This document shows positions 43,652-63,730 of a DNA stretch of 64,000 nucleotides, one piece after another. This DNA comes from Ferruginibacter sp. (lineage in GTDB: Bacteria > Bacteroidota > Bacteroidia > Chitinophagales > Chitinophagaceae), in assembly GCA_039922375.1 (NCBI GenBank), contig JBDSAA010000211.1, forward strand, positions 25,305 through 89,304, in the 5' to 3' direction. Numbering within the stretch: position 1 is the first letter of the stretch; each line of letters opens with the position of its first letter. The notes under the pieces are model-generated. The model did not search any database and was not told where the DNA came from. It saw only the letters and a list, made by a program, of their open reading frames with translations. The translations under genes and the position numbers were made by a program.

Positions 43652-44419
43652 ATGATACGCTCTTCTAACTTTTTTTTATCAGTTTGTTCGGCCATCTTAT
43701 TATTAAGTAGCTGTGTAGGAAAGGCACCCCTTTATATAAAAGGGAAGGTAAAACTCACGTTTCGCAATATGGTCAGTGGCAGTCCGATGGCATTAAATAC
43801 ATCCGTTTACACCAATCCCTTTGCGGAAACTTACACCATTTCAAAATTTAAGTATTATATCAGTAATGTAAAATTGGGTTTAAGTGGCGTACCCACCACT
43901 GCAACTGATAAAGATGGCTACCATTTGGTAGATCAAAGTTTGCCGGAAAGCCTGAGCTTTAGTTTCGAAGCCGACGAAGGATCATTCGTAACCCTTAGCT
44001 TTTTAATAGGAGTGGATAGTATCAGAAATGTAAGCGGAGCACAAACAGGCGCCTTGGATCCCTTAAAAGATATGTTTTGGACATGGAATAGTGGGTATAT
44101 TATGGCAAAGATGGAAGGCACTTCTCCGCAATCGAACCAGGCGGGCAACAAAATAGAATACCATATAGGGGGTTTTTCAGGAGCTAATAATGCACTTAGA
44201 TATGTGTCGTCCATTTATCCGAATGGCAAAACAGTGGCAATAAGGAGTGGGCAAACCAGTGAAATAATTCTAGAGGCAGATTTTAATAAATGGTGGCAGA
44301 CGCCAAACGACATAAAAATTAAAGACTTGCCTGTATGTACTACTCCCGGAGTGCTTGCAATAAAGGTAGCGGATAATTACAGCGATATGTTTAGAATTGT
44401 TGATGTCGTGAATCACTAA
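43652..44419 (+). CDS. MbnP-like lipoprotein (putative copper-binding partner of the adjacent di-haem peroxidase)
   Basis: Lipobox LLSSC, about 250 aa. The call rests mainly on tight pairing (6-nt gap) with a MbnH/MauG-like di-haem enzyme. Confidence 0.55.
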   Translation: MIRSSNFFLSVCSAILLLSSCVGKAPLYIKGKVKLTFRNMVSGSPMALNTSVYTNPFAETYTISKFKYYISNVKLGLSGVPTTATDKDGYHLVDQSLPESLSFSFEADEGSFVTLSFLIGVDSIRNVSGAQTGALDPLKDMFWTWNSGYIMAKMEGTSPQSNQAGNKIEYHIGGFSGANNALRYVSSIYPNGKTVAIRSGQTSEIILEADFNKWWQTPNDIKIKDLPVCTTPGVLAIKVADNYSDMFRIVDVVNH

Positions 44420-44425
44420 AAAAAT

Positions 44426-45487
44426 ATGAAATTTAAAATATTCATATCATTAATTATCTTTCTCAGCGCTACGGTATTCTTTTTAGACTCATGTAAAAAA
44501 GGCGATATAATAAAGAACGATACTGGTTATCATCCAGTCTCTTTAAAATTTTCAGTGCCTGCCGGTTGGCCGCAGCCACCTACTGATATTTTTAAATCCA
44601 ATCCGTTAACGGAGGAAGGTTTTCAATTAGGTAGAAAATTATTTTACGATGGAAGGTTGAGTAAGGATGGTAATTTTCCCTGTGCCAGTTGCCACCAGCA
44701 ATTTGCTGCATTTGCTACATACGACCATCAGTTCAGTCATGGTTCCGATAATACGTTTGGCACCCGCAATGCACCGGCCCTTTTTAATTTAGCATGGATG
44801 AAAGAAATGCATTGGGATGGAGGCATTAAACATATTGAATTGCAACCGCTGGCGCCTATCACCAATATCAATGAGATGGCGGAGACGATTGATAATGTGC
44901 TAAAGAAACTAAACATCGACAGTTCTTACAAGAGGATGTTCAAAGCGGCCTTTGGAGACAATACCATTACCAGCCAGCAAATGCTGAAAGCTTTGGCACA
45001 ATTTACAGGAAGCATACAATCTTACAACAGTAAATATGACCAGGTAAAACGCGGCAAGGCAAGCTTTACCGTAGCCGAGTTGAACGGATACAACGCCTTC
45101 AAATCAAAATGCAATACATGCCATACTGAGCCCTTGTTTACTGATAATTCTTTTCGTAACAATGGCCTTACACTTGACGCGTTTTTACAAGATAAGGGGC
45201 GAATGGGCATTACAGGGGATCGCAATGATTCCCTAAAATTTAAAGTGCCGGGTTTAAGAAACGTGTCGCTTACCTTCCCTTATATGCATGATGGCAGGCG
45301 CTTTTCTCTTTCCCAGGTAATAGAGCATTACCGTTCGGGAATTGAAATAAACCAACCCACACTTGATCCGCTGTTAAAAAACAGGATTGCTATTACCAAC
45401 CAGCAAAAAATCGATCTGATCGAATTTTTAAATGCCCTTACAGATCAGGTATTGTTACAGGATAAAAGATTTGCACAACCTTTCTAA
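44426..45487 (+). CDS. Di-haem cytochrome c peroxidase family protein (MbnH/MauG-like)
   Basis: Two CxxCH motifs (CASCHQ, CNTCHT) and the PSLRNV-like PGLRNV, with a typical CCP length. Confidence 0.85.
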   Translation: MKFKIFISLIIFLSATVFFLDSCKKGDIIKNDTGYHPVSLKFSVPAGWPQPPTDIFKSNPLTEEGFQLGRKLFYDGRLSKDGNFPCASCHQQFAAFATYDHQFSHGSDNTFGTRNAPALFNLAWMKEMHWDGGIKHIELQPLAPITNINEMAETIDNVLKKLNIDSSYKRMFKAAFGDNTITSQQMLKALAQFTGSIQSYNSKYDQVKRGKASFTVAELNGYNAFKSKCNTCHTEPLFTDNSFRNNGLTLDAFLQDKGRMGITGDRNDSLKFKVPGLRNVSLTFPYMHDGRRFSLSQVIEHYRSGIEINQPTLDPLLKNRIAITNQQKIDLIEFLNALTDQVLLQDKRFAQPF

Positions 45488-47810: not shown

Positions 47811-48827
47811 ATGCGTAAGTTGCTCAACAAAATATTCAGGCCATTATTTGTTCGGTTGGCTGACCGGTATGCCTCTGCGCCAAAGCGGGAAGAAGTATTT
47901 AAATCCTTGACCTCTTTATTAAAAAGTATTAATGAACCAAAAGACAAGCGGGGCATTGTGCTTGATATAAATATTGCCACCGATCGTTTTATTATTTTTA
48001 GCGATCAGCATAAGGGCAATAAAAGTCGCGGCGATGATTTTGAAAACAACGAACCTAATTATATCGCAGCACTCAACTATTATCATGCACAATCTTACAA
48101 CTACATTAATTTAGGCGATGCCGAAGAACTATGGAAATATAAGGTTAACCAGGTGATTCCAATGTATAAGGAGGCATTGCAGGCAGAAGCAAAATTCCAG
48201 TCGGTGAACAAATACTACCGCACATTTGGCAATCATGATCTGCTTTGGAAAAATCAATTAGATGTGAACCTTTACCTTAAACCAATTTTTCCGCTGCCCC
48301 TACCCGTGTACGAAGGGTTGGTTCTGCGGACGGTTGTGAATGAGATTCCCATTCAAGTCTTTTTAACGCACGGCCACCAGGGCGACAAGATGAGCGATAA
48401 CAATGCATTGAGCACCTGGCTGGTGGCACATATTTGGGCACCCATACAGCGCTACCTTGGGATCAATTTAAACACGCCTGCTAATGACTTTTATTTGCGG
48501 GATAAACACAACAGGTTAATGTATGAATGGAGCCGCCGTCGAAAAAATATTATTCTCATTACAGGCCATACGCATAAGCCGGTGTTCGCCTCCGGCAAGT
48601 ATACTCCGGCGGTTTCAAATACTATTAATGTAGAAGACACCCCTGCCAATATACAACCCGCTTACTTCAATTCGGGATGCTGTTGTTACAACGATGGCGA
48701 TATTACCGGTATAGAAATAGCAGATGGCTATATCCGTCTTATCAAATGGAAAATGGTTGACAATGTTTCTCAACGGCATGTATTGGAAGAAAAGGAATTA
48801 GGGAAATTGATACAGGATTTTAATTAG
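47811..48827 (+). CDS. Calcineurin-like metallophosphoesterase
   Basis: Ordered motifs SDQHKG, GDAEELW, GNHD, THGHQGD, GHTH. Confidence 0.8.
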   Translation: MRKLLNKIFRPLFVRLADRYASAPKREEVFKSLTSLLKSINEPKDKRGIVLDINIATDRFIIFSDQHKGNKSRGDDFENNEPNYIAALNYYHAQSYNYINLGDAEELWKYKVNQVIPMYKEALQAEAKFQSVNKYYRTFGNHDLLWKNQLDVNLYLKPIFPLPLPVYEGLVLRTVVNEIPIQVFLTHGHQGDKMSDNNALSTWLVAHIWAPIQRYLGINLNTPANDFYLRDKHNRLMYEWSRRRKNIILITGHTHKPVFASGKYTPAVSNTINVEDTPANIQPAYFNSGCCCYNDGDITGIEIADGYIRLIKWKMVDNVSQRHVLEEKELGKLIQDFN

Positions 48828-48872
48828 GCTGATTAATTTGCTACAGAGTAGTTATGCTTCTAAGCCTCCCCC

Positions 48873-48919
48873 TAAAAAAAAGAACTTCCACAGCTATTGG
48901 ATTGATAGCGTGTGGAAGT
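48873..48919 (-). terminator. Intrinsic terminator of unit A
   Basis: Minus strand reads ACTTCCACACGCTAT caatcca ATAGCTGTGGAAGT tc TTTTTTTT. Confidence 0.8.
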
Positions 48920-49026
48920 ACAATCTAAAACCGTTTTACGGATTTTATGGGATCATCAAAATCTTTGAGGGGTTACCTCCCAGAAAAAACTACCAAATAA
49001 TTTATTCCTGGTTTCAGTGTGTCCGG

Positions 49027-49310
49027 TCTTTTCGATGTCTCACGACATAGCTTTAGGATATTGGATGCGTTTGGTTTTTGGGTCATCATCGCTTTTTACG
49101 GCATAGTCCCGTGATTGGATTTTTTAGTTTTCTGTAGGTTTAGGATTCAGGTTTTTGAGTCATCATCGCTTTTAACAGCATAGTCTCCGGATATTGTTTT
49201 TTAGTCTTCAGTAGGATTTAAGATCTTGGTTTCGAGTCATTATCACTTTTTACAGCATAGTCTCAGAATATTCAATTTAGCAGGTCTTTTTTAGGATTTA
49301 ATTTCTAAAG
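49027..49310 (-). repeat. Tandem repeat array of unit A (4 copies; starts near 49033, 49080, 49157 and 49234; period 77 nt for the full copies)
   Basis: Plus-strand core g(a/g)gtcatcatcgctttttac(a/g)gcatagtc recurs. The copy nearest the terminator and the copy nearest the promoter are degenerate. Confidence 0.85.
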
Positions 49311-49344
49311 AAATTGTCTGTTGTTATTCATTCAACTTCTGATA

Positions 49345-49380
49345 CAAAGATGCGATGGTTTGGAATCGCAAACAATAGCA
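49345..49380 (-). promoter_or_regulatory. Promoter of unit A (-33 TTG within TGCTATTGTT, 20-nt spacer, -7 box CAtcTTTG)
   Basis: Minus strand reads tgctaTTGtttgcgattccaaaccatcgCAtcTTTGtatcag. Units B and C have the same geometry and the same 10-mer. Confidence 0.6.
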
Positions 49381-49872
49381 TAAGCGCTTTGTTTTTCATC
49401 GGATAGCCAATGCTGCCCGTGTAGTGATAATTCTATACATTCAACTATGTCGGGCTATTTTACTTGTTTCCAGTCTTTATTGTAATGGTTATTTGGGAGA
49501 ACATTCCGGCGATACATTGCCCGGGATATTTCGTTTGATTAGGCAAAGCCAGGCTTAGAGGATAAATATCAGGAAATGCGATGTAGTAACTATACTTTGC
49601 AAAGGATAAAACCGTCAGTTTCGATTTGCTTTAACCTCAGTGGAAAAATTCTGTTTAGTATATCAACCTTGTTACCTTGTTTAACATTCGTAATAAGGTA
49701 ATAAGGTCCATCGCTCGTCTGATTTGTTTCTTTATACAAATCACTATTTTTTCCCTCGCGAAGTACAATTAAAATGGAGTTTTTGTTGTTCAGCATTTTT
49801 GTTATCAAAAACCGGATTGGCACAAGAGTTCATTGTGATAATATTTCCTGATTGAGTATGGAGGCGGCTACC

Positions 49873-49919
49873 TAAAAAAAAACTCCCACAGCTATTGGTT
49901 TTTCATAGCGTGTGGAAGT
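49873..49919 (-). terminator. Intrinsic terminator of unit B
   Basis: Minus strand reads ACTTCCACACGCTAT gaaaaacca ATAGCTGTGGGAGT followed by nine T. Confidence 0.8.
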
Positions 49920-50031
49920 CAGTCTAAAACCATTTTACCGGTTTTATGGGATCTTTTTAATTCTTTGAGGGGTTGCCTCCCAGAAAAAATTACCAAATAA
50001 TTTATTCCTGGTTTCAGTGTTTTAGGTCTTT

Positions 50032-50400
50032 TACCATCATCGCCTTGCGGCATAGGCTTAGGATATTGGATTCGTTCGGTTTTTTGGGTCATCATCGCTT
50101 TTTACAGCATAGCCCCGGTTGTTGGATTTTTTAGTTTTCTTTCGGTTTGGACTTGGTTTTTTTGAGTCATCATCGCTTTTTACAGCATAGTCCCGGTTGT
50201 TGGATTTTTTGGTTTTCTTTCGGTTTGGACTTTGGTTTTTTGAGTCATCATCGCTTTTTACGGCATAGTCTCAGGATGTTTAATTTAACTGGTCTTCTTT
50301 AGGATTTTTGATTCTTGGTTTTTTTGAGTCATCATCGCTTTTTATAGCATAGTCTCAGGATGTTGTTTTTTTGGTCTTTTTTAGGATTTAGGTTCTAAGA
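50032..50400 (-). repeat. Tandem repeat array of unit B (5 copies; starts near 50032, 50086, 50164, 50242 and 50326; periods 54, 78, 78 and 84 nt)
   Basis: The copies at 50086 and 50164 are nearly identical over 78 nt. All copies share the core gagtcatcatcgctttttacagcatagtc. Confidence 0.9.
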
Positions 50401-50430
50401 AGTGTCAGTATTACTCTTTCACTTCTGACA

Positions 50431-50466
50431 CAAAGATGCGTTGGTATTTGTTGGTAAACAATAGCA
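50431..50466 (-). promoter_or_regulatory. Promoter of unit B (-33 TTG within TGCTATTGTT, 20-nt spacer, -7 box CAtcTTTG)
   Basis: Minus strand reads tgctaTTGtttaccaacaaataccaacgCAtcTTTGtgtcag. Confidence 0.6.
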
Positions 50467-50721
50467 TTATCGCCCTTTTTTGCTCGTAGAGTAATTACTG
50501 CCGACGTAGTAACACTTCTATACATGCCGATGTAATACTACGTTCATGAGACAGGGATAATACGAGGATGGGTTAACATTATAGGAATATGAGTTGGCTG
50601 CGGCCGGCATTACTGTACTGACTCCCAATGAACTAACGCAGTAAAAGCAATATGGATAAAATTAAAGGCCAGTCCCTGGTGAATAATAAACGCCGGAAAA
50701 AAACGTACAGCATACAATGCA

Positions 50722-50763
50722 GAAAAAAAATTCCACGGCTTATAATTTATAGCCTGTGGAAGT
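50722..50763 (-). terminator. Intrinsic terminator of the 1203-aa histidine kinase gene
   Basis: Minus strand reads ACTTCCACAGGCTAT aaatta TAAGCCGTGGAA followed by eight T. The stem sequence matches the family seen in the unit A, B and C terminators. Confidence 0.8.
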
Positions 50764-50806
50764 AAATTTATTATTACAGGTTAAAAAAACTATTGTGAAA
50801 ATATTA

Positions 50807-53800
50807 TTAATAGTAATGCATCATCTTATCGCTTCCGTCGCTTACAGGGATTGTAAAGTGGAAAACACTTCCTTCCAATGGCACTGACTCTACCCATATT
50901 TTACCATGATGCAATTCTACTATTTTTTTGCAATGAGATAAACCTATGCCTGAGCCATGGTATTCTGTACGGGTATGCAGCCGCTGAAAAATAACAAATA
51001 TCCTTTCGCTGTGAACCTTGTCGATGCCAATGCCGTTATCCGCAAATGCAAAATTCCAATAGCCATCACTTTTATCCACCGTTATTTTTATTACCGGTGC
51101 TACACCAGGTTTGCTGAACTTTATAGCATTGATAAGCAGGTTTTGAAACAACTGCTTTATTTCCGTTGGATAACCACTGATGGTGGGTAATTCCTCCGAG
51201 ATAACTTCTGCTCCTGAATCGCCTATCGCTTTATAAAGATCTGCAAGAACATGTTGCAGAACCAGGTTACAATCTATGCTCTCCAGCTCTTTCATTGTCC
51301 CTATCCTTGAATAATCAAGCAAATCTTTTATAAGTGTTTTCATCCTGTCAGAAGAATCAATTATAAATTCGAGGTACTTATCAGCTTTTTCATCCAGCCT
51401 GCCCCGGTACTGCTGCTGAAGCAGTTTCACAAAGCTGGATGTAGTACGGAGCGGTTCCTGCAAATCGTGTGAAGCCACGTAAGCAAACTGCTCCAGTTCC
51501 ATATTTTTTCTTTTCAATTCCTTATTTTTTGACTCAAGCCTTGCTTCAGACTTTTGTAGAAGCGCCTCATCCAGCTTCCGCTTGGTGATGTCTGTGATCA
51601 TCGCGAGACCACCAATAAAATGATCTTCTTTATTTAAGATAGGTGAAGCCGATACACTCGTCCAGATAAGTTTGCCGCTTTTAGTTTTAAAAGGCAGGTC
51701 TATACTTTCTGATAACCCTGCCCTTCTTTTTTGCAAAGCAGGTATTATTATTTTCCTGTCGGCTTCTTCCATAAAATAAGTGATGTGTTTACCAACCATC
51801 TCTTCTGCAGAATACTCAAGTATCGCACACATATTTTCATTCACAAAGAGGCTAAAGTCGTTCTCATCTGTCACCCAAATACCCTCCTGAGCAGTTTCCA
51901 CTATCTGGCGGTAACGTTCTTCGCTAATTTTTAACCTGGCTTCCGCTTCTTTTCTTTCGCTGATATCTACGATCATTCCATCACATATCTCTTCCCCTGT
52001 TATCGGGTCTTCAAATAAAGAAATATTTTCTATCACATGCAATGGCTTGCCCTTCCCTGTCTTCAACACCACTTCCAAATTGTAGAGCTTTTTTTGTTCC
52101 CGTAGCGCTGATATTAAATTCCTTCTTTCGGTAGTTGTAAAATAAAACGCTGCGGCATTGGTTTGCAATACCTCCTGTGGAGACGCATAGCCAAGAATAT
52201 CCGCAAATGCCTGGTTACAAGTAATTATTTTACCCGCAATATTTGTTTGAAAAATTCCGGCAAGGTTGTGTTCGAATAAAGTGCGGTACCGACGCTCGCT
52301 TTCTGCCACATGCAGTTCTGTTTTTTTCCGTTCGGTAATGTCCACGATGGCGCCAATAACCCGAACAGGTTTTCCGAAATCATCCCGTATTACATAGGCT
52401 CTGTCCAATACAGTTCCATACACACCTTCTCTTATTTCATATCTAAATTCATTTTCCCAAAAGTTGACTGTATTTTTTCTTATTTTTCTAAGCCTTCCAA
52501 TAACAGTGTCCCTGTCATCCGGGTGTACTTTTTTAGTCCATTCATATAAATCCGGCACCGGCATATTTTTATCATAACCAAGCAGCTTAAAAAAGCCTTC
52601 ATTCCACCACACATCTTCAGTTAAAAGATTCCAATCCCAAATTGCGTCGTTGGTGGCTTGTGACAGCCTTTGAAATCTTTCTACAGATTCCCGGATATTT
52701 TTTTCGGCATTCCTTCTTTCAGTGATATCCCTAACGATGGTAATAACACGGCCATCAGAAAGCCTTTTCACTGTAATATCCACAGGGATGAGTGTTCCTT
52801 TTTTATTTAAAATATTTTTTTCAAAAGCTATCTTTTCACCTCTTAATAATTTTTGCTTACTGGCTTGGGTGGCCATTTCTGCTCCTAAAATAATTTCAGT
52901 AATATTAATTTGTCCGATTTCTTCCTTTGTATACCCCAGCAAATCACATCCACTTTGGTTGACATCTGTTAATTTACCATCGGGTGTATTTATAAAGATG
53001 GCATCCGATGCCTGCTCTACCAACGAGCGGTGTTTTTCTTCTCCTTCATTAATTAACTGTTCCGATTTCTTACGGGCAGTAATGTCCACCATTATACCTC
53101 TTAGAAATTGTGTGCCGTCCTCGTTTAAAATCACTGATACAATATCCTGCAACCATACAATACTACTGTCTGCCGCTATCATCCTGTATTCAAATTCATG
53201 CGATTTTCTTTCGCTGGTGTACTGCATGCAAATGGATACCGCTGTTTCCCTGTCATCCGGATGTATGTGGTTGGGCCAGAAAAGGGGCGACTCGATCCAT
53301 TCCGAAACAGGGTATCCAAGCAATGCCTCCGCACGTTTACTTACAAAACTAAATTGAAAGGTTGCCGCATTTGCTTCCCACACAATGCCATTAACAGTAT
53401 TTACAAGGTTTTGAAAATTTTGCTCAGATTTCTTTACCTGCTCTTCTACTATTTTCCTGTCGGTAATATCGTGCACAGACCCAATGATCATAATGCAATT
53501 GTTTTTTTCATCCAATACAGGATCGATCGTTACAATGCCCGTTTTAATACCGGTAGGATACGCTGTGGTTTCCTCCCAGTTCACTGTTTTTTTTTCTGTA
53601 GCTGCTTCTGTGTATTTTTCCAATGCAAGTTCCAGTGACGGAGATGGGATTACTTCTTCTATATATTTTCCCTCAACCTGTTTCCTGGATAAACCAGTAG
53701 TAGTTAAAAAAGAACTGTTTACTGAAACAAACTTAAACCGGCTGCTACTTTCTACGCTCAACATGAAAATGCTATCCACCACCGTGTTATAAATAAGGTC

Positions 53801-54418
53801 GAGCTGCCGTTCATTCAATAACAATGCAGCCTCCGATTTTTTTCTTTCTGTTATATCATTCACGATACCTTCTACTCTTATAAGCTTTCCCTCTGCAAGA
53901 GTTGGCACTGCTTTTACCTCTATCCATCTTATGGACAAATCTTTATGAATGATGCGGTAGGAATTTTTAATTGTTATTCCCAGGCATAACGGTCCATTTT
54001 CATTTTCAATTAAATGGCGGTCATCCGGATGAATTACCTGGTACCATAGTATATTGTTGTCATAGAAATCCTCAACGGTATAGCCGTAAATTTTTTCACA
54101 GCCAATAGACACTTGAATATACTTATTAGCGATAATATCCCTGGAAAAAAAGCCTTCGTTTACTTCGTTAAATATGTGGCTAAGTTTATCATGTTCTTTT
54201 TTATGCTCCTCGATTTCCTTCAATAATGTCTCATCCAATTCACCCAATTTAATTGTGCAGTCTTCCACAGAAGTTTGCAGCAATTGTATTTTATCATCAT
54301 ACCTATCAAATGTTTTGTTGATGGAAGCTATAAAACTTACGAAGGATTCAGGCAGTTCCGTTGCATCGCCCAAATATTTTTGTACCTGCTGTTGTAATAA
54401 TTTATTAAGCATAATCAA
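50807..54418 (-). CDS. Multi-PAS sensor histidine kinase (cytoplasmic, about 7 PAS/PAC modules, HisKA + HATPase_c)
   Basis: Repeated PAS-PAC modules ending in DITERK/DITKRK, H-box FAYVASHDLQEPLR, N-box QNLLINAIKF, G-boxes DNGIGI and GSGIGL. Confidence 0.9.
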   Translation of the reverse strand: MIMLNKLLQQQVQKYLGDATELPESFVSFIASINKTFDRYDDKIQLLQTSVEDCTIKLGELDETLLKEIEEHKKEHDKLSHIFNEVNEGFFSRDIIANKYIQVSIGCEKIYGYTVEDFYDNNILWYQVIHPDDRHLIENENGPLCLGITIKNSYRIIHKDLSIRWIEVKAVPTLAEGKLIRVEGIVNDITERKKSEAALLLNERQLDLIYNTVVDSIFMLSVESSSRFKFVSVNSSFLTTTGLSRKQVEGKYIEEVIPSPSLELALEKYTEAATEKKTVNWEETTAYPTGIKTGIVTIDPVLDEKNNCIMIIGSVHDITDRKIVEEQVKKSEQNFQNLVNTVNGIVWEANAATFQFSFVSKRAEALLGYPVSEWIESPLFWPNHIHPDDRETAVSICMQYTSERKSHEFEYRMIAADSSIVWLQDIVSVILNEDGTQFLRGIMVDITARKKSEQLINEGEEKHRSLVEQASDAIFINTPDGKLTDVNQSGCDLLGYTKEEIGQINITEIILGAEMATQASKQKLLRGEKIAFEKNILNKKGTLIPVDITVKRLSDGRVITIVRDITERRNAEKNIRESVERFQRLSQATNDAIWDWNLLTEDVWWNEGFFKLLGYDKNMPVPDLYEWTKKVHPDDRDTVIGRLRKIRKNTVNFWENEFRYEIREGVYGTVLDRAYVIRDDFGKPVRVIGAIVDITERKKTELHVAESERRYRTLFEHNLAGIFQTNIAGKIITCNQAFADILGYASPQEVLQTNAAAFYFTTTERRNLISALREQKKLYNLEVVLKTGKGKPLHVIENISLFEDPITGEEICDGMIVDISERKEAEARLKISEERYRQIVETAQEGIWVTDENDFSLFVNENMCAILEYSAEEMVGKHITYFMEEADRKIIIPALQKRRAGLSESIDLPFKTKSGKLIWTSVSASPILNKEDHFIGGLAMITDITKRKLDEALLQKSEARLESKNKELKRKNMELEQFAYVASHDLQEPLRTTSSFVKLLQQQYRGRLDEKADKYLEFIIDSSDRMKTLIKDLLDYSRIGTMKELESIDCNLVLQHVLADLYKAIGDSGAEVISEELPTISGYPTEIKQLFQNLLINAIKFSKPGVAPVIKITVDKSDGYWNFAFADNGIGIDKVHSERIFVIFQRLHTRTEYHGSGIGLSHCKKIVELHHGKIWVESVPLEGSVFHFTIPVSDGSDKMMHYY

Positions 54419-54512
54419 TCTTAGTCAACCTTTAGTTCAATGTTAATGACCTGTTGCATCTTTAAAAACATTCAAACTCATTTTTCAAAATATCTTATAA
54501 ATAAATTTTTAA

Positions 54513-54830
54513 TCAAATGCTCGTTAATGGTTTGTTCTCGAAGCCTGCAACCATTGGAATATTATCAGCATGTAGTTTATCATCAGGGTTAAAAGATGAG
54601 CTGAACATAATAGGCATATTGATATCCAGGGATATTAGCTCGGGATACTGCAAGTCCCGCATTTTATCATCAAGCTCTGCTGTGTCTATCAGATATTTCA
54701 ATGCCTTTTTACCACTGTCTTCTATTTGAATATGATGTGTGCATCCGGCTTCCTCCAATAGCATATTGTTGATAAAATTATTTGATTCATCATCATCAAT
54801 AAGCAGGATACAGTTTAATTTTTTTTTCAT
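54513..54830 (-). pseudogene. Degenerate stand-alone receiver. It has an internal deletion of about 27 aa and a premature stop relative to its two paralogs.
   Basis: MKKKLNCILLIDDDE...LDINMPIM then FSSSFNPDD...GFENKPLTSI*. The alpha3-beta4 segment present in the 142- and 156-aa paralogs is missing. The tail homologous to KLEAILEKY is interrupted by in-frame stops. Confidence 0.5.
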
Positions 54831-55260
54831 AATATTAATTTACCGTTCTCACAAATTTTTGAATTGCCAATCCACCTGTTCGCAGCCGATATTGTATAAC
54901 AGGTATCTCCTTTCCCTGGGAAACTGCAATGGCTTATCACCAGGCTCTGAAAAAGTAATTTTGATCTCTGTGGGGAGCGATTTAGAATGGGCAGCTTTGT
55001 ATCTTGACAGGCTGCATATGCCATTTTTGGGTTAAAAATTAAAAGAACTTATGCCTGGCCTCTCACTGATTCATTAGATGGAATCTGGTTGGTGGTTCAA
55101 TTATTACTTCGAGGCAAGTACGGAGCCATATGCAAATTCGCTATAAAAAGCGGAATAACGCAATCCCAACAGCATTATTTTCAACTGTTGCAAAGCCAGC
55201 AACCTAACTGTTTGACCCTCTTGATATGTCAGCGCAAAAGGGAAGTAAACAGCTGCTTTA
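54827..55260 (-). pseudogene. Remnant of a histidine kinase core (H-box to N-box region only)
   Basis: ORF 54827..55024 reads ...KLPILNRSPQRSKLLFQSLVISHCSFPGKG, matching ELPVIDGYPTEIKLLFQNLVINAIKFRKK of the intact kinases. DNA at 54937-54976 aligns with 59807-59846. An H-box remnant EFAYGSVLASK is followed by two stops near 55101-55139. The G-boxes are absent. Confidence 0.6.
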
Positions 55261-55309
55261 TAAACCGGACCATATCAGTTTCTATAAGCTATACATCAAC
55301 AGCCATTAC

Positions 55310-55738
55310 TTAAACAAATACAGATAATAAATATTTTTCTAAGATTGCTTCTAACTTTTTTGCTGTTAAAGGTTTATGCTCAAAACCTGAGATCTGCGGG
55401 AGGTTTGCTGCCTTCAATTCATCTTCAGGAAACAATGAAGTGGTGAGCATTACTACGATGGTTTTATCAGTGGTGTTTATTGCTTTATATTCCTCTAAAA
55501 ACTCCCATCCATTCATAGCCGGCATATTTATGTCAAGAAAGATAAGATTGGGCACAGGATAGTGACCACTATTATCTTTTTCCACCTCGCTCTTTGTTAA
55601 GTACTCCAATGCTTCAGCACCGCTTTCGGCAATTTTAATATGCTCCGTGCAACCTGATTCTTCAAGCATCATTCGGGTAAAAAAGTTGGTCGCCTCGTCA
55701 TCATCAATTACAAGTATGCAGTTCAATTTGTGTTTCAT
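55310..55738 (-). CDS. Stand-alone CheY-like receiver (no output domain)
   Basis: DDD acidic pocket, phospho-acceptor in FLDINMP, MLTTS, KPLT. Confidence 0.9.
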   Translation of the reverse strand: MKHKLNCILVIDDDEATNFFTRMMLEESGCTEHIKIAESGAEALEYLTKSEVEKDNSGHYPVPNLIFLDINMPAMNGWEFLEEYKAINTTDKTIVVMLTTSLFPEDELKAANLPQISGFEHKPLTAKKLEAILEKYLLSVFV

Positions 55739-58154
55739 GGGTTGGATTTTTTTGAATGGTAAAATAAAAAATACTTCCTGTGCCCGGTATAGATTCTACC
55801 CGGATATTTCCTTTATGTAATTCAACAATTTTTTTACAATATGATAAACCGATGCCTGAGCCCGGATAATGTGAACGGTTATTAAGGCGTTGAAAAATAA
55901 CAAAAATTCTTTCACTATGTTTTTTCTCCAACCCTATCCCATTGTCACTAATAGTAAATTCCCAAAAGTCTTCTTTTTCAATTGCAGCAATATTTATTTG
56001 CAGCGGCACATCGTTTTTGCGGAATTTTATTGCATTCGCCAGCAGGTTATGAAAGAGTTGTTTTATCTCGGCGTCATATCCCCGGATAACAGGCAATTCC
56101 CCTACAGTAATGTGGGCACCACTTGTGTGAATAACTACATTGAGGTCATTCAGCACTTCCCGTAAGAGGCACTGTGTGTTTACCAGTTGCAGTTCCTTGT
56201 TTGCCCCAATCCTGGAGTATTCCAGTAATCCCGTTATAAGGGTTCTCATTCTTTCTGACGATTGCATAATAAAGGAAAGGTATTGATCTGCCTTATTATC
56301 GAGCCTGCCAAGGTATTGCTTTTGAAGTAAGCCTACAAAGTTGCCGGTAGTTATCAATGGTTCCTGCAGGTCGTGTGAGGCTACATATGCAAACTGCTGA
56401 AGTTCTTTATTTTTTCTTTCAAGTTCCATATTATTAGCAATTAGCCTGGCTTGGGATTTTCGTATTAATAACTCATCCTGTTTACGCTTAGTAATATCGG
56501 TAAACATTGCCATTGCCCCCTTATAATTTCCGGCTTCATCCAAAACAGGGTTGGTAGATACATTTGTCCATAGAGTTTTACCGCTTTTTGTAACGAAAGA
56601 CGATTCGTGGGTTTCATGCAACCCGCCCTTTCTCCTTTTAATTTGATCCATCGCCTTTTTCTTTTCATCATCATTCTTGAAATCATAATTTTGTTTCCCC
56701 ATCATCTCTTCCCTTGAATATTCAAGCATCTCACACATTTTTTTATTTACAAAAACCGTGTAATTGTTTTCATCAATTACCCAAATGCCCTCCTGTGATG
56801 TTTCTACTATTTGCCTGTATTGTTTTTCACTTTTTAGCAATTCCGCTTCAGCCTTTTTCTGCTCGGTAATGTCCTGGGCTATTCCCGTTAGTCTGATTAG
56901 TTCGCCTTTGTCATTTTTTGTCGGCTTGCCGTGAGCGCTTATTATCTTGGTAATATTTTTACTGCTAATTATCCGGCATTCATAAGAAAACGGCAAATGA
57001 TCCATAACAGATTTGGACATAAGGCTGCGCACGTTTTCTCTATCATCCGGATGTACAAAACTCAGGAACCCTTCATAGCTCGCATTAAACAAATTGCGGT
57101 CTGTATCAAAAACATCATACAATTCATCAGACCACAATAGCCCGTTGTTGACGATATCCCACTCCCAGCTTCCCAGTTTAGCAATGTGTTGAGCTTCGTT
57201 TAAATTTTCATTACTGGCTTTCAAATTATCACGCATTGCTACCAGGGCTTTGCCTAAAGCATCTTCTGCACCTAGTGGTTCAAAATAACTTTCAAAGTTC
57301 CTGTTTCCTATTTCAGTGGCAAATGCGGCAGTAGCTTGCAATTTTTCAGAAAGGTTATTAACAGAACGTATCATCTCGCTGATCTCGTCATTCTTAATAT
57401 CATGCGTTACCTTCCTGGAAATTCCATTACCCAGGTCAGTTACAATATGCCTTATTTTATTGATAGGCTGAATAATTAACCTGGTCATAAATAAGGAAAG
57501 GAATACGCCGATTAAGATCATTGTTACTGACAAAGCAATTATAAACATTCGTAGTTTCGTCGAGTACACACTCACTATATTGTTCTGTACTGTTCTTTCA
57601 GCTATCCAATGGGTTCTGATAGCTTTTATAGAATTAATCAGGCTTGCAGAGCGTGGAAGAACTTCTTCCTCAATCTTTCTTTCTGCTTCAAACTTTATCA
57701 TTGGGTCATCATAATCACTGAACGTTTTTAAATCATTCATTATGCCCTTTTCTATTACCAGTAATTCTTCAAAACCGGCAAATGCTTTGTTTAAACTATC
57801 TACCCAGTTGTTCGCCTTCCATTGAGCTGCATACTTGCTAATTGCTGATTTTAATGCAGGATAATCAGTGACGCGTAATTTTTCTAAAGCCGTTTTGTTC
57901 TCTTCACTAAACCTTAAAAAAACCCAGTTAGTGGTATATATTTTCGACTCAAGCGCCATTCTTCTGAAATCGATAATTGTTTCTAATGAAGGCTCTATCA
58001 CCTTAGTAAGATGGTTAGACGAATGTTGGATATTGTTTAAAGTAATGATTGTCATAATGCTATTTATAATAAATAACACAACTAACAATAAGAAGCTACC
58101 GTAAATTCTGTGCCTGATGCTTATGTTCACGCCGCGTTTAAAATAATTAAGCAT
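55704..58154 (-). CDS. Membrane sensor histidine kinase (2 TM + HAMP-like linker + 2 PAS + HisKA + HATPase_c)
   Basis: N-terminal TM helix, extracytoplasmic region of about 170 aa, second TM helix, PAS modules, H-box FAYVASHDLQEPL, N/G boxes. The 3' end overlaps the receiver gene by 35 nt. Confidence 0.9.
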   Translation of the reverse strand: MLNYFKRGVNISIRHRIYGSFLLLVVLFIINSIMTIITLNNIQHSSNHLTKVIEPSLETIIDFRRMALESKIYTTNWVFLRFSEENKTALEKLRVTDYPALKSAISKYAAQWKANNWVDSLNKAFAGFEELLVIEKGIMNDLKTFSDYDDPMIKFEAERKIEEEVLPRSASLINSIKAIRTHWIAERTVQNNIVSVYSTKLRMFIIALSVTMILIGVFLSLFMTRLIIQPINKIRHIVTDLGNGISRKVTHDIKNDEISEMIRSVNNLSEKLQATAAFATEIGNRNFESYFEPLGAEDALGKALVAMRDNLKASNENLNEAQHIAKLGSWEWDIVNNGLLWSDELYDVFDTDRNLFNASYEGFLSFVHPDDRENVRSLMSKSVMDHLPFSYECRIISSKNITKIISAHGKPTKNDKGELIRLTGIAQDITEQKKAEAELLKSEKQYRQIVETSQEGIWVIDENNYTVFVNKKMCEMLEYSREEMMGKQNYDFKNDDEKKKAMDQIKRRKGGLHETHESSFVTKSGKTLWTNVSTNPVLDEAGNYKGAMAMFTDITKRKQDELLIRKSQARLIANNMELERKNKELQQFAYVASHDLQEPLITTGNFVGLLQKQYLGRLDNKADQYLSFIMQSSERMRTLITGLLEYSRIGANKELQLVNTQCLLREVLNDLNVVIHTSGAHITVGELPVIRGYDAEIKQLFHNLLANAIKFRKNDVPLQINIAAIEKEDFWEFTISDNGIGLEKKHSERIFVIFQRLNNRSHYPGSGIGLSYCKKIVELHKGNIRVESIPGTGSIFYFTIQKNPTHETQIELHTCN

Positions 58155-58165
58155 TTGTGATTTTT

Positions 58166-58375
58166 TTAAAATTCATAATTGAAACATGCAAACCGCATAG
58201 CTGGCTTTTCGTCAGTGTGAAAAAATCCTTTTGCTCTGTTATTCAATATATTTTCCCAATACAAATGTTTAAACGGTTCAACAGTTAGATTATTATTAAG
58301 AGCCAGTTCGCAACTGTCTTTTTGATAGTAATCAATGCCGTCCCCTTCCGAGCGTTGTAAGCCAAATGGGTTCAT
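58166..58375 (-). CDS. Small hypothetical ORF ending in an outer-membrane-protein-like C-terminus (possible gene remnant)
   Basis: About 69 aa from the ATG, ending ...RFACFNYEF. It sits between the YfiR-like gene and the kinase. Support is weak. Confidence 0.25.
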   Translation of the reverse strand: MNPFGLQRSEGDGIDYYQKDSCELALNNNLTVEPFKHLYWENILNNRAKGFFHTDEKPAMRFACFNYEF

Positions 58376-58410
58376 AAACAATTGAATTTTTTTACTTTAA
58401 AATCCGGTAG

Positions 58411-58998
58411 CTATCTTACCAGTGTACCTAGCCGCAAAAGCTCCGAAGCAACATTTAAATCCCTGCTTTCAATATTTGTTTTATTTATTTCCAGTTTCAG
58501 GCGTTCATCTGCAACTACAAAATTTATACACGATCCTTTTGACGCAGCGGCATTGATCTCGGAAACAATTAAAACCGGACTTCCTTTTGTTATGTTAACA
58601 ATCTTCTGTAAGCTTTTACCAGCATCATCACCAATAAATAAAATATGACAGTTATATTTTTTTGCCGAAGCGCTCATTTTCCGGACACTTATCTTCCTGT
58701 TTCCTATAGCCTTACTCTTTACAAATTCATCCAATTCTTCATAAAGCGGTGTATTGCCAATTATGCCAATGATAAAATCGCCGGTATTATAAACAGCGGG
58801 CCATTCAATGTACTTAGTAAACCTATAAATGATATTCGCATGTACTGCATAACTTAAGTCTTGCTGCGCCTTTCCGGAAACTGACAAGCACATCATTACC
58901 ATAAACGCAAAGCCTACTTTGTGATAGAACATTAAAACAAAATAAGTCTTCCTGTTTTTTAAATACATCCTTATATATTTTCCTGATGTGGCTAACAC
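58411..58998 (-). CDS. YfiR-like (DUF4154) periplasmic protein
   Basis: Signal peptide, then VHANIIYRFTKYIEWP ... ILFIG ... VLIVSE ... GSCINFVVADERLKLEIN pattern of DUF4154. The start may be the internal ATG at 58968. Confidence 0.75.
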   Translation of the reverse strand: MLATSGKYIRMYLKNRKTYFVLMFYHKVGFAFMVMMCLSVSGKAQQDLSYAVHANIIYRFTKYIEWPAVYNTGDFIIGIIGNTPLYEELDEFVKSKAIGNRKISVRKMSASAKKYNCHILFIGDDAGKSLQKIVNITKGSPVLIVSEINAAASKGSCINFVVADERLKLEINKTNIESRDLNVASELLRLGTLVR

Positions 58999-59034
58999 AA
59001 TTTATTGCCCGTGGCTTATGTACTTTTTTTATTT

Positions 59035-59505
59035 CTAATTACTTTTATCCCCCACGAATGCCAGTTTACCAGTACTGTCATCCCTCGAGAAATGCTTTTG
59101 CAATATTCTTTCCAGCTTCCCAATTGTTATTGGCTTATTCTCAAAGCCCGAAATTTCAGGCATGCTTTCAGCCCTTTCCCTATCTTCCGGAAAAAGAGAA
59201 GTAGTTAACATAACTGTCATCACTTTGCCCTGTATTTCCTTGTCAAGCTTTTTATATTCTTCTAAAAATTCCCAGCCATCCATCGCAGGCATATTGATGT
59301 CAAGCAATATTAGGTCAGGGCAGGGGTAATAATTTTCGTCACACCCATTTTTATGACTGGTCAACAGGTATGCCAGTGCCTCTTTGCCGCTTTCCACCAT
59401 TTTTATATATTGTGCGCACCCGGCTTCTTCCAATATGATCCGGGTAAAAAAGTTAGTAGCCTCGTCATCGTCAATTACAAGTATGCAATTCAATTTATAT
59501 TTCAT
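59035..59505 (-). CDS. Stand-alone CheY-like receiver (no output domain)
   Basis: Paralog of 55310..55738 (MKYKLNCILVIDDDEATNFFTR..., LLDINMP, MLTTS, KPIT). Confidence 0.9.
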   Translation of the reverse strand: MKYKLNCILVIDDDEATNFFTRIILEEAGCAQYIKMVESGKEALAYLLTSHKNGCDENYYPCPDLILLDINMPAMDGWEFLEEYKKLDKEIQGKVMTVMLTTSLFPEDRERAESMPEISGFENKPITIGKLERILQKHFSRDDSTGKLAFVGDKSN

Positions 59506-62500
59506 CAGTTATTATTTTTATGAATGGTAAAATGAAATATGCACCCTTCTCCTGGTGCAGATTCTACCCAAATTTTTCCTTTATGTAGTTCTACTATTTT
59601 TTTACAATGCGACAAACCGATACCGGAACCTGCATACTCCTTATTGGTATGCAGCCGTTGAAAAATGTCAAATATTCGCTGGCTGTATTTTTCGTCTATA
59701 CCAATACCATTGTCGCTTATAGTGAATTCCCAATAATGCGCTGCTTGTTGCACATCAATTTTTATTCCTGGTATAACGTCCTTCTTACGGAATTTTATTG
59801 CATTGATCACAAGGTTCTGAAAAAGTAATTTGATTTCTGTTGGGTAACCATCTATCACCGGTAACTCAGCAACTTGTATATCAGCGTTCGCTTCTTTTAT
59901 TGCTGCCATAATATCGGCGAGCATTTCCTGCACCAGTATATTGCAGTCAATTTTTTTCAATTCCATATTTGTTCCAATCCTCGAATAATCCAGCAGGTCT
60001 TTAATTACTACTTTCATCCTTGTGGTGGCTTCTAAAATAAACGCCATATATTTATCCGCTTTCTCATCGATCTTTCCATGATATTGCAGTTGCAGCAATT
60101 CCACAATGCCTGCTGTAGTTCTCAACGGTTCCTGCAGATCGTGTGAAGCTACATAGGCAAACTGCTCCAGTTCTTTATTTTTTATTTTAAGTTCTTTATT
60201 AGCAAGTTCAGCTTCAATCCTCGCATGGTCGGCTTCAAGCCTTGCCTTCTGTTCTTCCTGGGTTGAAAGAGATAATTGCAGTGTTTGTTCCTGCACTTTT
60301 TCTTGTAGTTTTCTTCTTTGTGCTTTAATCGCATTTACCCTGTACCCGTAAAATGCCACCATACCACTGATAATTGCAATGACCATCAACAGCCTGAACC
60401 ACCAGGTTAACCAAAAAGGTGGTTCAATGATGAGTTGAATGCTGATGATATTCTTCGACCAGTTGCCTTCATTATTTAATCCCCTAACCTTGAAAATGTA
60501 TTTACCCGGATCAATATTAGTATAAGTCGCTATACGGCTGGTTCCGGCTTCATGCCACTCTTTATCAAAACCTTCCAGGATATAAGCATATTTCTTTTTC
60601 TCGGGTGTTGTATAATTAAGTGTGGCAAATTCAAAAGAGAAAAAAGTGTTAGAATAAGGCAGCGTAATGGTTTTAACTTCCGCTATATTTTTTCTTAAGG
60701 GAGACGAGTCGGAATGATTGATGGGAACAAGTACTTTCTTATTGAAAGCATTGAATTTTGTAATAACCAGCGGAGGCTCAAAAGCAACGGCTTTAACACT
60801 GTCTGGAAAAAATTGGTTAAAGCCATTAGTGCCGCCAAAATACATTACCCCGGATCTGCTTTTGCAGAACGCATGCATTTTAAATTCATTTGACTGCAAG
60901 CCATCGGATACGCTAAAGTTTTTAAAGACTTTTGTTATAGGATTAAAACGGGAAATGCCTTTGTTGGTACTGATCCACAGATTTTTTTTACTGTCTTCCA
61001 GTATTCCGAAAATCACATTATCAGGAAGGCCGTCTGCCATGGTATAAACTGTAAACCGCCCAGTTTTTTTGTTAAAAAAGTTTAGGCCCACCCTCGTTCC
61101 AATCCATAAATTTTTATCCCCGTCTTCAAAAATTGAACTTAAGCTGTTATTACTAATGCTGTTCTTTGTTTCATCATGTAAAAAACGTGAAAAGGATTTT
61201 GTTTTTTTATCATATAGATTTAAACCGTCGCCGTCGGTGCACACCCATAATTGACCATCGCTATCTTCAAAAATAGAAACAACATAAATGCCTGAAATAC
61301 CATTAGTCCGATTAATAGCATATTGGTGATGCGTGAAGGATTTTTGATCAGCATTTAACAGGTCCAGGCCACCACCAAAAGTGCATACCCAGATATTTTT
61401 ATCCCGGTCTTCAAAGATTTTCCAAACATTATTACTATTTAAGCTCGATGGGTTGCCAGGTTCATTTTTGAAATGCCTGAAGGTTTTGCTAGTTGGGTTA
61501 AATACCGTCATTCCATCTCCCCAGGTTCCGGCCCAGATGTTGCCTTTACTGTCTTCGTGTACAGCCAATACATAATCGCCGCAGATGCTTTTTTTGTTAT
61601 TTTTCTCATGGCGAAAATGGGTAAAGTTGCCTGTTGTGGGGTTAAACACATTCAAGCCGCCCCCATCTGTTCCCAGCCAGATATTTTGTTTAGAGTCCTC
61701 AAAGATGCTGAGCACCTGGTTATTGCTGAGGCTGTTGGGTGACAGCATATGCTTATAATGTGCAAACCTGGCTTTATCCCGGTTTGCCATGTCAATACCA
61801 CCGGTAAAGGTGCCCAGCCACATATTGCTTTTAAGATCCTTATAAACAGAATAAATAGAATTACTGCTGATGCTTTCTCCGTCAATTTCGTCGTGCTTGT
61901 AAGTGGTAAATGAGCCGGCATCATAATTAAAAATAGATAACCCTCCGTTTTCAGTGCCAATCCACAGATTATTCTCAGCATCTTCCGTAATGGCATACAC
62001 AGTATTTGCCGCCACGCTATTTGCATTATTTTCATCGTGTTTAAAATGAGTAAATGCCCCGGTTTCCATGTTAAATAAATCCATTCCTGCACCATCAGTT
62101 CCTACCCATAAACGACGCTTACTATCTTCAAACATGGTGTACACATTATTGCTGCCTATGGAATGTCTGTTCTTTTTATCATGCTGAAAACGAGTAAAGT
62201 TTTTGTTTTTCCTGTTTAGCAAATTGATTCCTCCATTCAGCGTGGCCATCCAGATATTATGGCTCATGTCTTCGAAAATATACCTTATATAAGAATCGCT
62301 GATACTCTTATTGTCGGCCAGGTTATGCGTAAAATGTTCCATTTTATTTGTTACCGGGTCCAGCATATCCAATCCTGCTTCTGTACCAATCCAGATTTTT
62401 CCGTACTCATCCTCAAGTAAGCCATGTACCACATCGTGAGAAATGCTGTTTGCATTTTTCGGGTCATGCGTGTAGTTAGTAAAACTTTCTTTGTTTCGAT

Positions 62501-62831: not shown

Positions 62832-63349
62832 CTAATTGCTCTTTTTCGGATAGAAGGATGAGGTCACCTTTTTTTTCTTGTGTCGTTAGCTACTATAATG
62901 TTTCTTTCTATTACTCTTGTCATAAAATCATCGCCAATTCTTCAGTACTTCATTGCTGGCGGTGCAAATACCCGGGTAAATAATAATTAAATTCTGGCAG
63001 CAACTTAACGTGGCTGATAGACCCATTAGAAATTTTCCGTAAACAAAAAACCCCCGTCAGGAGGCCGTAAAGGTTGTTGCAAACTTAATTTTCGAAAAAT
63101 ATTCGCTTCAGAACGGCTTCATAATAACTTTCTTAAACAATCAATTTAAATACTGCGGCGGGGGCAATCGTTTAATTTCAAGGCTATATTATGAAGTAAA
63201 GGTTCATAAAACTTAAATTATAAAAGGTAGAAAAACAAACCATTGTGATGTAGCTATATGTCTATTACCAGGGATTAGATATAAAGATGCCATAGAAAAC
63301 AGATAGCATTTCGTAAAATACTGCATGGCCAATTGTAGATTAGGAAAAA

Positions 63350-63393
63350 TAAAAAACTTCCACAACTAATGGTTTTTCATAGTCTGTGGAAGT
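63350..63393 (-). terminator. Intrinsic terminator of unit C
   Basis: Minus strand reads ACTTCCACAGACTAT gaaaaacca TTAGTTGTGGAAGT TTTTTATTTTT. Confidence 0.75.
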
Positions 63394-63495
63394 ATAATTT
63401 TGCGAACGTTTTAATAAGTTCACGTAGATCAGGGTGTGTTAGCCATTGTCCCAGAGCAATTTAATAATTTTCTGGTTTGGGTTGCATTTGGTTTT

Positions 63496-63700
63496 GGCCA
63501 TCATCGCTTATTACGGCATAGGCCAGGATATTGGTATTGGTTTTTGGGTCATCATCGCTTCTTACGGCATAGGCCCGGATACTGGTTTTTTGTCTTCTTT
63601 AGTTTTTGGATTGAACTGGTTTTTGGCCATCATCGCTTTTTAAAGCATAAGCCGGATATTGTCTTCCTGGTTTTAATTTGGATACTGGATTTCTATTTTT
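63496..63700 (-). repeat. Tandem repeat array of unit C (3 copies; starts 63496, 63546 and 63625; periods 50 and 79 nt)
   Basis: Plus-strand core gg(c/g)(c/t)catcatcgct(t/a)(a/c/t)tta(c/a)(g/a)gcata(g/a)gcc recurs three times. Confidence 0.85.
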
Positions 63701-63730
63701 ACCGAAGATATCATTCGGTGAATGCTGATG

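Follow-up and report, generated by a model that had tools for sequence, protein, structure and literature searches.

We examined a 64,000-nucleotide window of a Ferruginibacter sp. genome (contig JBDSAA010000211.1, positions 25,305 to 89,304 of the forward strand), in which an element called unit B had been noted on the minus strand. As judged by sequence comparison, unit B is the gene of a conserved structured non-coding RNA family, complete from promoter to terminator; it runs from about 50426 to 49874 in window coordinates and would be one copy of an approximately 0.5-kb RNA gene. The original prediction had read unit B as an undescribed non-coding RNA, and this reading is supported by comparative evidence, namely a promoter, a terminator, covariation, the lack of coding periodicity, and the absence of a match in Rfam. 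The distribution mapping suggested at that time was performed as a scan of 185,579 species genomes with the pattern TATGCNNTNNNAAGCGATGATGRC. At least 118 stretches matched, and at least 111 of these, which contain the relatives of unit B, come from Ferruginibacter, Chitinophagaceae, Chitinophagales, or unclassified Bacteroidota metagenome-assembled genomes (MAGs). Seven stretches from other phyla were rejected as chance matches, since they contain a single match or none and, when the core is scored with a covariance model, reach 14–25 bits versus 41–74 bits for real modules. Among the matches listed, the family is so far limited to Ferruginibacter and other Chitinophagales, with genes of about 0.3–0.7 kb.

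In the predicted transcript, a 5′ clamp helix would be followed by one to eight copies of a hairpin module, a three-hairpin 3′ domain, and a terminator. All parts of unit B lie on the minus strand. Its promoter (50431–50461) is of the Bacteroidetes −33/−7 type and can be read directly as had been claimed, with TTG at 50461–50459, a 20-nt spacer, and the −7 box CATCTTTG at 50438–50431, and the start is predicted at about 50426–50424. The earlier start coordinate, 50466, precedes the TTG by about 5 nt; the remaining coordinates are essentially as first given. A sigma-54 promoter was rejected by eye because its GG/GC spacing does not fit. Further upstream, a conserved region (50491–50533) contains CAGTAATTAC (50500–50491) and the direct repeats ACATCGGCA and ACGTCGGCA, which are candidate transcription-factor sites. 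The 5′ clamp hairpin (AGAAGUG...CACUUCU, 50398–50426) is found in both the minimum free energy and the centroid fold. It precedes a five-module array (50026–50370), in which A/C-rich linkers bearing AUCC and ACC motifs lie between the modules. The five tandem repeats proposed earlier were recovered with periods of 84, 78, and 78 nt, four of them well conserved and the fifth degenerate, and Tandem Repeats Finder assigns the array a period of 78, 4.2 copies, and a score of 401. Covariance model R1 places the modules at 50370–50321, 50286–50237, 50207–50159, 50129–50081, and 50073–50026 with scores of 41.7–68.8 bits (E-values of 5e-07 to 6e-13), the lowest score being that of the fifth module.

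The 3′ domain of unit B (49920–50020) is matched by a second covariance model, R2, at 49876–50020 with 112.9 bits. It consists of ACACUGAAAC (50020–50011), hairpin Pa (CCAGG..CUGG, 50011–49980), hairpin Pb (GAGG-CAACC-CCUC, 49979–49967), a single-stranded GAUCC (49953–49949), and hairpin Pc (49945–49926). Pa and Pb are the two hairpins predicted originally, and Pc is an addition to that list. The intrinsic terminator (49874–49919, ACUUCCACACGCUAU..AUAGCUGUGGGAGU then U9) is likewise as described, a long GC-rich hairpin whose stem spans 49919–49883, followed by nine U ending at 49874.

The view that 48.8–50.8 kb contains no credible coding sequence holds: the only open reading frames (ORFs) there are 70 and 77 amino acids (aa) long, and a Pfam search of the 77-aa ORF, which lies in the spacer between units, gave no match. 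A protein-coding reading of the array would make its products tandem small ORFs (MMTQK..., or a two-codon AUG-CYN-UAA in each module) or peptide precursors. AUG codons are present in each module, AUG-CYN-UAA is intact in about 84–86% of them, and 23-aa ORFs sharing one frame are found in two neighboring unit B repeats. Over 217 repeat periods in the family, however, the remainders on division by three are distributed 64/60/93, with multiples of three not preferred (64 of 217), and the longest sense ORF has a median length of 38 aa. The mini-ORF stop is lost in about 14% of modules, and substitutions are driven by pairing, obeying base-pair complementarity with G-U pairs included rather than codon position. 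We consider protein coding very improbable.

The suggested Rfam check was also carried out. At the gathering threshold, cmscan with the 4227 models of Rfam 15 gave no hits in the whole window and hence no family matching unit B; with E-values up to 10, positions 48700–50900 gave chance-level matches only (best E = 0.41); and on 18 homologous loci the search returned nothing but an unrelated group II intron fragment. A D1-D4 fragment of such an intron (RF01999, 40.4 bits) lies at 5810–5923 (plus strand) of locus L114, in a Ferruginibacter MAG, about 400 nt upstream of the unit. A scan for tRNA and tmRNA found none, and full-text literature searching revealed no such RNA described for Chitinophagaceae or Bacteroidota. 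We classify the RNA as a new family, with an architecture that appears to be of the repeat-motif sponge or modular small RNA (sRNA) type.

Conserved structure of the module and the 3′ domain

A gapless comparison of 349 unique modules defines a near-invariant stretch of 21 nt, UAUGCYNUAAAAAGCGAUGAU. The module folds into a P1 helix of 4–5 bp, an asymmetric internal loop (UAU / GAUGAU), a short P2 stem, and an A-rich cap, which is usually the loop YNUAAAAA; the invariant nucleotides sit in the loops and not in the helices. In P1, position −1 pairs with 21 as C-G in 299 modules, U-A in 43, and U-G in 7; position −2 with 22 as C-G in 207 and U-A in 58, with A.A in 53; position −3 with 23 as G-C in 303, A-U in 35, and G-U in 9; and position −4 with 24 as G-C in 79, U-A in 71, A-U in 61, U-G in 29, and G-U in 19. 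When 150 modules were aligned with MAFFT (alignment A2), 91.8% of the cells were paired versus 80.2% in shuffles, with a covariation score of 0.276 versus 0.115, a value reached by none of 500 shuffles; slid registers gave at most 0.074. RNAalifold recovers the P1 helix independently. Divergent modules replace the GC-8 nt-GC arrangement by GCUG-CCACUA-CAGC, GCC-CAAAA-GGC, or GCC-GCAA-GGC, and because the inner stem changes in these variants while UAU and GAUGAU stay, the P2 stem appears to be real. The truly conserved element of the module is the predicted asymmetric internal loop, 5′-UAU-3′ opposite 5′-GAUGAU-3′. In the fifth module of unit B, P2 is GCC-GCAA-GGC, where a GNRA tetraloop (50048–50045) replaces the typical 8-nt A-rich loop. 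Variant P2 loops are likewise frequent in the 3′-most module of other loci.

With the sequence GC-GAU-GAUG-R, the 3′ strand of the module matches both the C box RUGAUGA of box C/D RNAs and the strand that is bulged in a K-turn (C stem, 3-nt bulge, GA, U, G); the loop is also asymmetric, with 3 nt versus 6 nt, and the GC-GAU-GA-UG strand is conserved at 88–100% per position. Chance-level cmscan hits to the archaeal C/D RNA sR38 were obtained (E = 2.2 and 5.7). However, the opposite strand is an invariant C-UAU-GC, not C-UGA-GC, with UAU present at 99–100% in the 349 modules. Because this second strand offers no GA, tandem sheared G.A pairs are impossible, and the internal loop is therefore no K-turn. 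In a further difference from box C/D, the last position of the apparent C box falls in the covarying P1 helix and is A in only 35% of modules.

The linkers are G-poor, A/C-rich, and apparently unstructured according to fold prediction, and the composition of the whole unit is 40% A, 24% U, 21% C, and 15.5% G. Immediately 5′ of P1, the linker carries the motif CCAAUAUCC, whose conservation exceeds 90%. AUCC occurs 6–10 times per unit versus about 1.8 expected, a 4–5-fold enrichment (9 versus 1.9 in unit B). It forms a second repeated motif, found ahead of each module and in the 5′ and 3′ domains, often as AUCCUAAAGAAGACC. Pairing of a linker AUAUC with GAUGAU, as a pseudoknot or an alternative fold, was rejected: modules with GAUAAU mostly keep the linker unchanged, and a linker pseudoknot simultaneous with P1 would be sterically implausible, with 0 nt between the strands.

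Covariance model R2 finds 127 instances of the 3′ domain in 100 sources, including all three units of the window (units A and C are described below). In alignment A4, from which counts were taken after fitting to R2 itself, 81.7% of cells are paired versus 70.0% in shuffles, the covariation score is 0.297 versus 0.132 (0.096 in the best slid register), and 26 of 27 pairs have changed on both sides. The unfitted MAFFT alignment A3 gives 77.5% versus 74.7% paired cells, covariation of 0.167 versus 0.123 (best slid register 0.119), and 14 of 27 pairs changed on both sides. The terminator helix is 93.5–96.1% paired in A3 and A4, with compensatory changes.

This architecture might be explained by RNA alone, if the internal loops and the A-rich or GNRA loops made tertiary contacts that build a compact particle or drive self-assembly. 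Tertiary folding and self-assembly have recently been seen for some large ornate bacterial RNAs, and the present RNA is long and multi-domain, with A-rich, nearly invariant P2 loops and GNRA tetraloops in the last modules of unit A (GUGA) and unit B (GCAA). The 5′ strand UAUGC of the module also resembles the UAUGG strand of the 11-nt tetraloop receptor, but GAUGAU does not match the receptor strand CCUAAG. Moreover, a range of one to eight modules among orthologues fits poorly with a fixed three-dimensional fold, and the long linkers look made for flexibility. We regard an RNA-only assembly as improbable.

Control regions and genomic sites of the family

The counts across loci given here derive from the genome-scan matches listed, and the range of units and modules and the copies per genome are lower bounds. 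The box GCATCTTTG, with at most one mismatch, was found upstream of 101 of 124 units, and a terminator of the form CTTCCACA...TGTGGAAG-U-run downstream of 88 of 124, with 279–916 nt from box to terminator (median about 520). The promoter columns are invariant in the class consensus and among the three units of the window, and the same terminator motif closes units A and C. With loops of more than 8 nt, the unit terminators escaped a generic terminator scan. In 98 units of both promoter classes, CAGTAATTAC at about −75 and the A-tract AAAAAAGAGCAAT are conserved upstream, along with repeats of the CGTA..TACG type or TACGATTG. The promoter-proximal 78 nt of unit B are conserved in loci L072, L074, and L044, and at the common locus the distance from the stop codon of the upstream gene to the promoter is fixed at 186–189 nt. 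The upstream boxes look like factor-binding sites.

A clamp helix invariably follows directly on the predicted start: AGAAGUUG/CAAUUUCU for unit A, AGAAGUG/CACUUCU for unit B, and CACCGAA/UUCGGU for unit C. The clamp of a long class is turned by a 110-nt insertion into a 15-bp long-range helix, AGAAGUUGAUUGAUA/UAUCAGUCAACUUCU, paired in 46–50 of 50 sequences; the units of the window lack this insertion. Within the first 150 nt of the long class (L008, L011, L028, and about 50 other loci), UUGAUUGAUA can pair with the nearby UAUCAAUCA as a local hairpin, or alternatively with the distal UAUCAGUCAACUUCU as the 15-bp helix followed by a U-run, so that the two compete. Such a predicted layout, some 140 nt from the start of the RNA, is reminiscent of an attenuator or an early terminator.

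Arrays contain one to eight modules, most often three, and the number varies also between orthologues. Repeat periods cluster at 49–60 nt or 74–86 nt, the units of the window belonging to the long-linker class, and up to four tandem units occur within a single 8-kb block. The commonest site (55 loci) lies between a gene for a PLP/CBS-domain enzyme (cystathionine-beta-synthase-like), about 230 nt upstream of the unit, and a Peripla_BP_2 gene that begins 0–80 nt past the terminator on the same strand, followed by aldolase and accD genes. This common site is vertical housekeeping synteny. The second recurrent context is a histidine-kinase neighborhood, as in the window. In seven other loci, the orthologous long-linker units have a kinase nearby whose transmitter domain is 60–70% identical; it lies upstream of the unit in L015, L036, L044, L074, L089, and L114 and downstream in L069. 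Nucleotide identity to the orthologues is 75–79% for the unit and 68–72% for the adjacent kinase coding sequence.

These sites bear on a cis-acting leader or attenuator, which would permit conditional readthrough to the Peripla_BP_2 gene or to the kinase operon that follows unit C. In its favor, about 25 loci have a same-strand gene that starts no more than 80 nt past the terminator; two helices that exclude each other precede a U-run in the long-class 5′ domain, which looks like an attenuator; and the Reg_prop kinase operon lies downstream of unit C in the same orientation. Yet among 73 units scorable downstream of the terminator, 43 are followed by a same-strand gene, 10 by a convergent gene, and 20 by another unit. 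A riboswitch or attenuation leader was rejected on this count, as a same-strand gene follows 43 of 73 units and not nearly all; because a convergent gene or a further unit follows the other 30, a pure leader function is excluded for many copies. Units B and A have no downstream gene to control, about 520 non-conserved nt separate unit C from the kinase gene, and the terminator is strong (93–96% of cells paired) and conserved in sequence. No competing antiterminator was noticed in the sequences read, a dedicated search for one not having been made. A leader function is, in our estimate, quite improbable.

The conserved setting speaks equally to readings at the DNA level, in which the array would be CRISPR-like, a type III toxin-antitoxin RNA, a mobile miniature repeat, or a set of DNA iterons. 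Such elements could account for a tandem array with a promoter and a terminator and for several copies per genome, but the would-be spacers are of low complexity and are shared, in conserved form, by different units and species, the neighborhood lacks cas, toxin, and transposase genes, G-U pairs occur at covarying positions, and the position between housekeeping genes is fixed in 55 loci. We find this group of explanations barely credible. A CRISPR array was rejected on inspection, given conserved A/C-rich linkers, repeats that differ by compensatory changes, and no cas-type gene in the window neighborhood. ToxI-type antitoxin RNAs share the succession of promoter, tandem direct RNA repeats, and intrinsic terminator, but here the linkers are long where ToxI repeats abut, the site is a housekeeping one, and no toxin gene comes after the terminator: the units are followed by unit A, the convergent Metallophos gene, and the Reg_prop kinase in the window, and by Peripla_BP_2, aldolase, and accD genes in other loci, and a type III toxin-antitoxin system was accordingly rejected. 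The STAXI motif of Rfam also comprises tandem copies of a small structured module; it gave no cmscan hit, and the present units differ in taxon and in that their context is not one of mobile-element genes.

Paralogous units and the signaling cluster of the window

Unit B has two paralogues in the window, units A and C, which are likewise on the minus strand and had been missed by the original prediction. With at most three mismatches, the core CTATGCYGTAAAAAGCGATGATGAC has 10 matches in the window versus 0.00 expected from shuffles. Unit A (48873–49353, the unit proper about 49340–48873) has a promoter box at 49353–49345, three modules (49278–49229, 49201–49152, and 49122–49075), and a 3′ domain plus terminator (49020–48878; R2, 100.6 bits). 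A fourth module position in unit A has decayed to a plain GNRA hairpin, AUGUC-GUGA-GACAU (49048–49035), without the GAUGAU loop. Unit C (63345–63740, the unit proper about 63726–63345) has a −7 box ending at 63731, a 5′ hairpin, three modules (63666–63619, 63589–63541, and 63538–63490), and a shortened 3′ domain plus terminator (63482–63350; R2, 70.1 bits). When A, B, and C are aligned, the order of the parts is identical and the invariant blocks fall in the promoter region (GC..T..TGCTATTGTT ... AT.TTTG..TCAG), the module cores, and the terminator (CTTCCACA..CTAT...TAG.TGTGGAAGTT).

Units C on one side and B/A on the other bracket a signaling cluster (50807–62831), also read on the minus strand. 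After unit C come a Reg_prop/Y_Y_Y histidine kinase of 1108 aa (62831–59505), a receiver-only protein of 156 aa, a YfiR-like (YfiR/DUF4154) protein of 195 aa, a HAMP-PAS kinase of 816 aa (58154–55704), a second receiver-only protein of 142 aa, a receiver-like ORF of 105 aa with a weak match under the Pfam cut-off, and a multi-PAS kinase of 1203 aa (54418–50807), followed by units B and A. No DNA-binding output domain was seen in the cluster. Unit B is followed by unit A, which faces the convergent Metallophos gene.

The spacers from B to A and from C to the kinase gene have no match in related loci. In the latter, a promoter-like GGCATCTTTA box (at about 63290) and a small terminator (CCUCC-UGAC-GGGGG plus a U-run, about 63070–63040), both on the minus strand, could define another short transcript. 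The multi-PAS kinase gene ends with a terminator (50762–50724, minus strand) of the CTTCCACA family, CTTCCACAGGCTAT..ATAAGCCGTGGAATTTTTTT; it is the sole non-unit copy among four in the window and may either be left over from a former unit or represent a terminator cassette in shared use. Elsewhere in the window (43652–45487, plus strand), an MbnP-family gene (255 aa) adjoins a gene for a di-haem cytochrome c peroxidase (CCP_MauG, 353 aa), an MbnP/MbnH-like pair that is unrelated to the RNA.

A candidate decoy or scaffold for an RNA-binding factor

We propose tentatively, at slightly under an even chance, that the RNA serves an RNA-binding factor as a multivalent decoy or scaffold. It would act in trans, offering as binding sites the repeated invariant internal loop and the A-rich loop, perhaps joined by the AUCC/ACC motifs of the linkers, and one transcript would titrate several copies of the putative factor, as CsrB/RsmZ do with CsrA and CrcZ with Hfq. 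Transcription would probably be under a dedicated transcription factor at the conserved upstream boxes, and this putative factor may be the output of the histidine-kinase/response-regulator cluster found beside the units here and in several further species. A decoy design is suggested because the invariant nucleotides are loop-borne, the hairpin is present in multiple copies, and the linkers appear flexible; the variable number of sites, the G-poor composition, and the enrichment of AUCC count in the same direction. For regulation, we count the conserved upstream boxes and a kinase cluster with three kinases, two clear receivers, and a weak third match.

The closest parallels in design come from Proteobacteria. 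Like the units described here, CsrB/CsrC and RsmX/Y/Z are RNAs of several hundred nt running from their own promoter to an intrinsic terminator, with many copies of one hairpin-borne motif, a copy number that depends on the species, and paralogous genes per genome; their transcription is typically driven by a two-component system. They differ in that the present module has the UAU/GAUGAU internal loop and an A-rich loop and no ANGGA, and there is no sequence or Rfam similarity. No CsrA domain was found among the window proteins scanned with Pfam, which cover about 42 kb onwards. CrcZ/CrcY of Pseudomonas are about 400 nt long with repeated A-rich single-stranded motifs, and the crcZ gene adjoins the two-component genes cbrAB that control it, much as units B/A lie directly downstream of a histidine-kinase gene. 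In the present family, by contrast, AANAANAA is not enriched, no sigma-54 consensus is apparent by eye, and the conserved elements are structured hairpins. Kinase adjacency holds for the window and seven loci, most family members being at the housekeeping locus instead.

Several observations weigh against a decoy or scaffold. Transcription and the transcript ends are predictions, and the loci were picked by a module-core pattern, by which the conservation of the core is partly an ascertainment effect and inflated. Among the recurrent neighbors of the units, which comprise housekeeping genes and spurious antisense ORFs, there is no consistently linked gene for an RNA-binding protein. Units A, B, and C each contain 0 copies of ANGGA (1.5–2.7 expected), GGA is not enriched, and AANAANAA occurs 2, 1, and 0 times in A, B, and C versus 1.3–3.9 expected. 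Known sponge motifs are thus absent, and the analogy to CsrB/CrcZ is therefore architectural only. The proximity of the Peripla_BP_2 gene may leave room for a cis effect at the common site, and the single-stranded CCAAUAUCC could equally be a base-pairing seed.

This last point leads to a modular base-pairing sRNA or precursor comparable to NrsZ, in which the array would be processed to single modules that pair with mRNAs through CCAAUAUCC or the AUCC motifs, the targets having GGAUAUUGG complementarity; in another form, the intact RNA would sponge another RNA. The strong conservation of CCAAUAUCC just upstream of P1, the enrichment of AUCC throughout the units with the 5′ and 3′ domains included, and linkers that look single-stranded in the predicted fold count for such an sRNA. 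Bacteroides sRNAs are reported to be AU-rich, unstructured, and Hfq/ProQ-independent (PMC7366714), which we also count in its favor. Conservation, however, is strongest in the internal and hairpin loops and not in the linker, which is unusual for a seed-based sRNA. NrsZ of Pseudomonas itself has tandem copies of one stem-loop module, their number varying between species, but the present units have another promoter type, much longer linkers, and an extra conserved 3′ domain, with no Rfam similarity. We consider a modular sRNA unlikely, though worth keeping in mind.

Returning to the decoy or scaffold, a more specific version holds that these RNAs are the Bacteroidota counterpart of CsrB/CrcZ, that is, signal-controlled decoys titrating an undescribed global RNA-binding regulator via a new type of site. 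That site is proposed to combine the K-turn look-alike without G.A pairs, the A-rich loop, and the AUCC linkers. We regard this version as possible but doubtful. To our knowledge, CsrA has not been reported from Bacteroidota. No obvious Hfq or ProQ homologues are present in Bacteroides, and for classical RNA chaperones and sponge RNAs there are no obvious homologues in Bacteroidota (PMC7366714). Since Hfq and ProQ are reported to be lacking, a decoy-type RNA here would point to a new regulator.

Post-transcriptional control in Bacteroidota is poorly understood, and the family described here, with up to eight identical structured sites per RNA, belongs to bacteria that are abundant in soil, freshwater, and wastewater. 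It would offer a concrete handle on the missing protein partner, with one 40-nt module as bait, and the histidine-kinase link suggests a testable signaling input. Whatever the function, the family provides a clean RNA-database entry with covariation, a promoter, a terminator, and an unusual K-turn-like internal loop. If the counterpart of CsrB/CrcZ is indeed what these RNAs represent, they would reveal a post-transcriptional regulon in a phylum without Hfq, ProQ, and CsrA.

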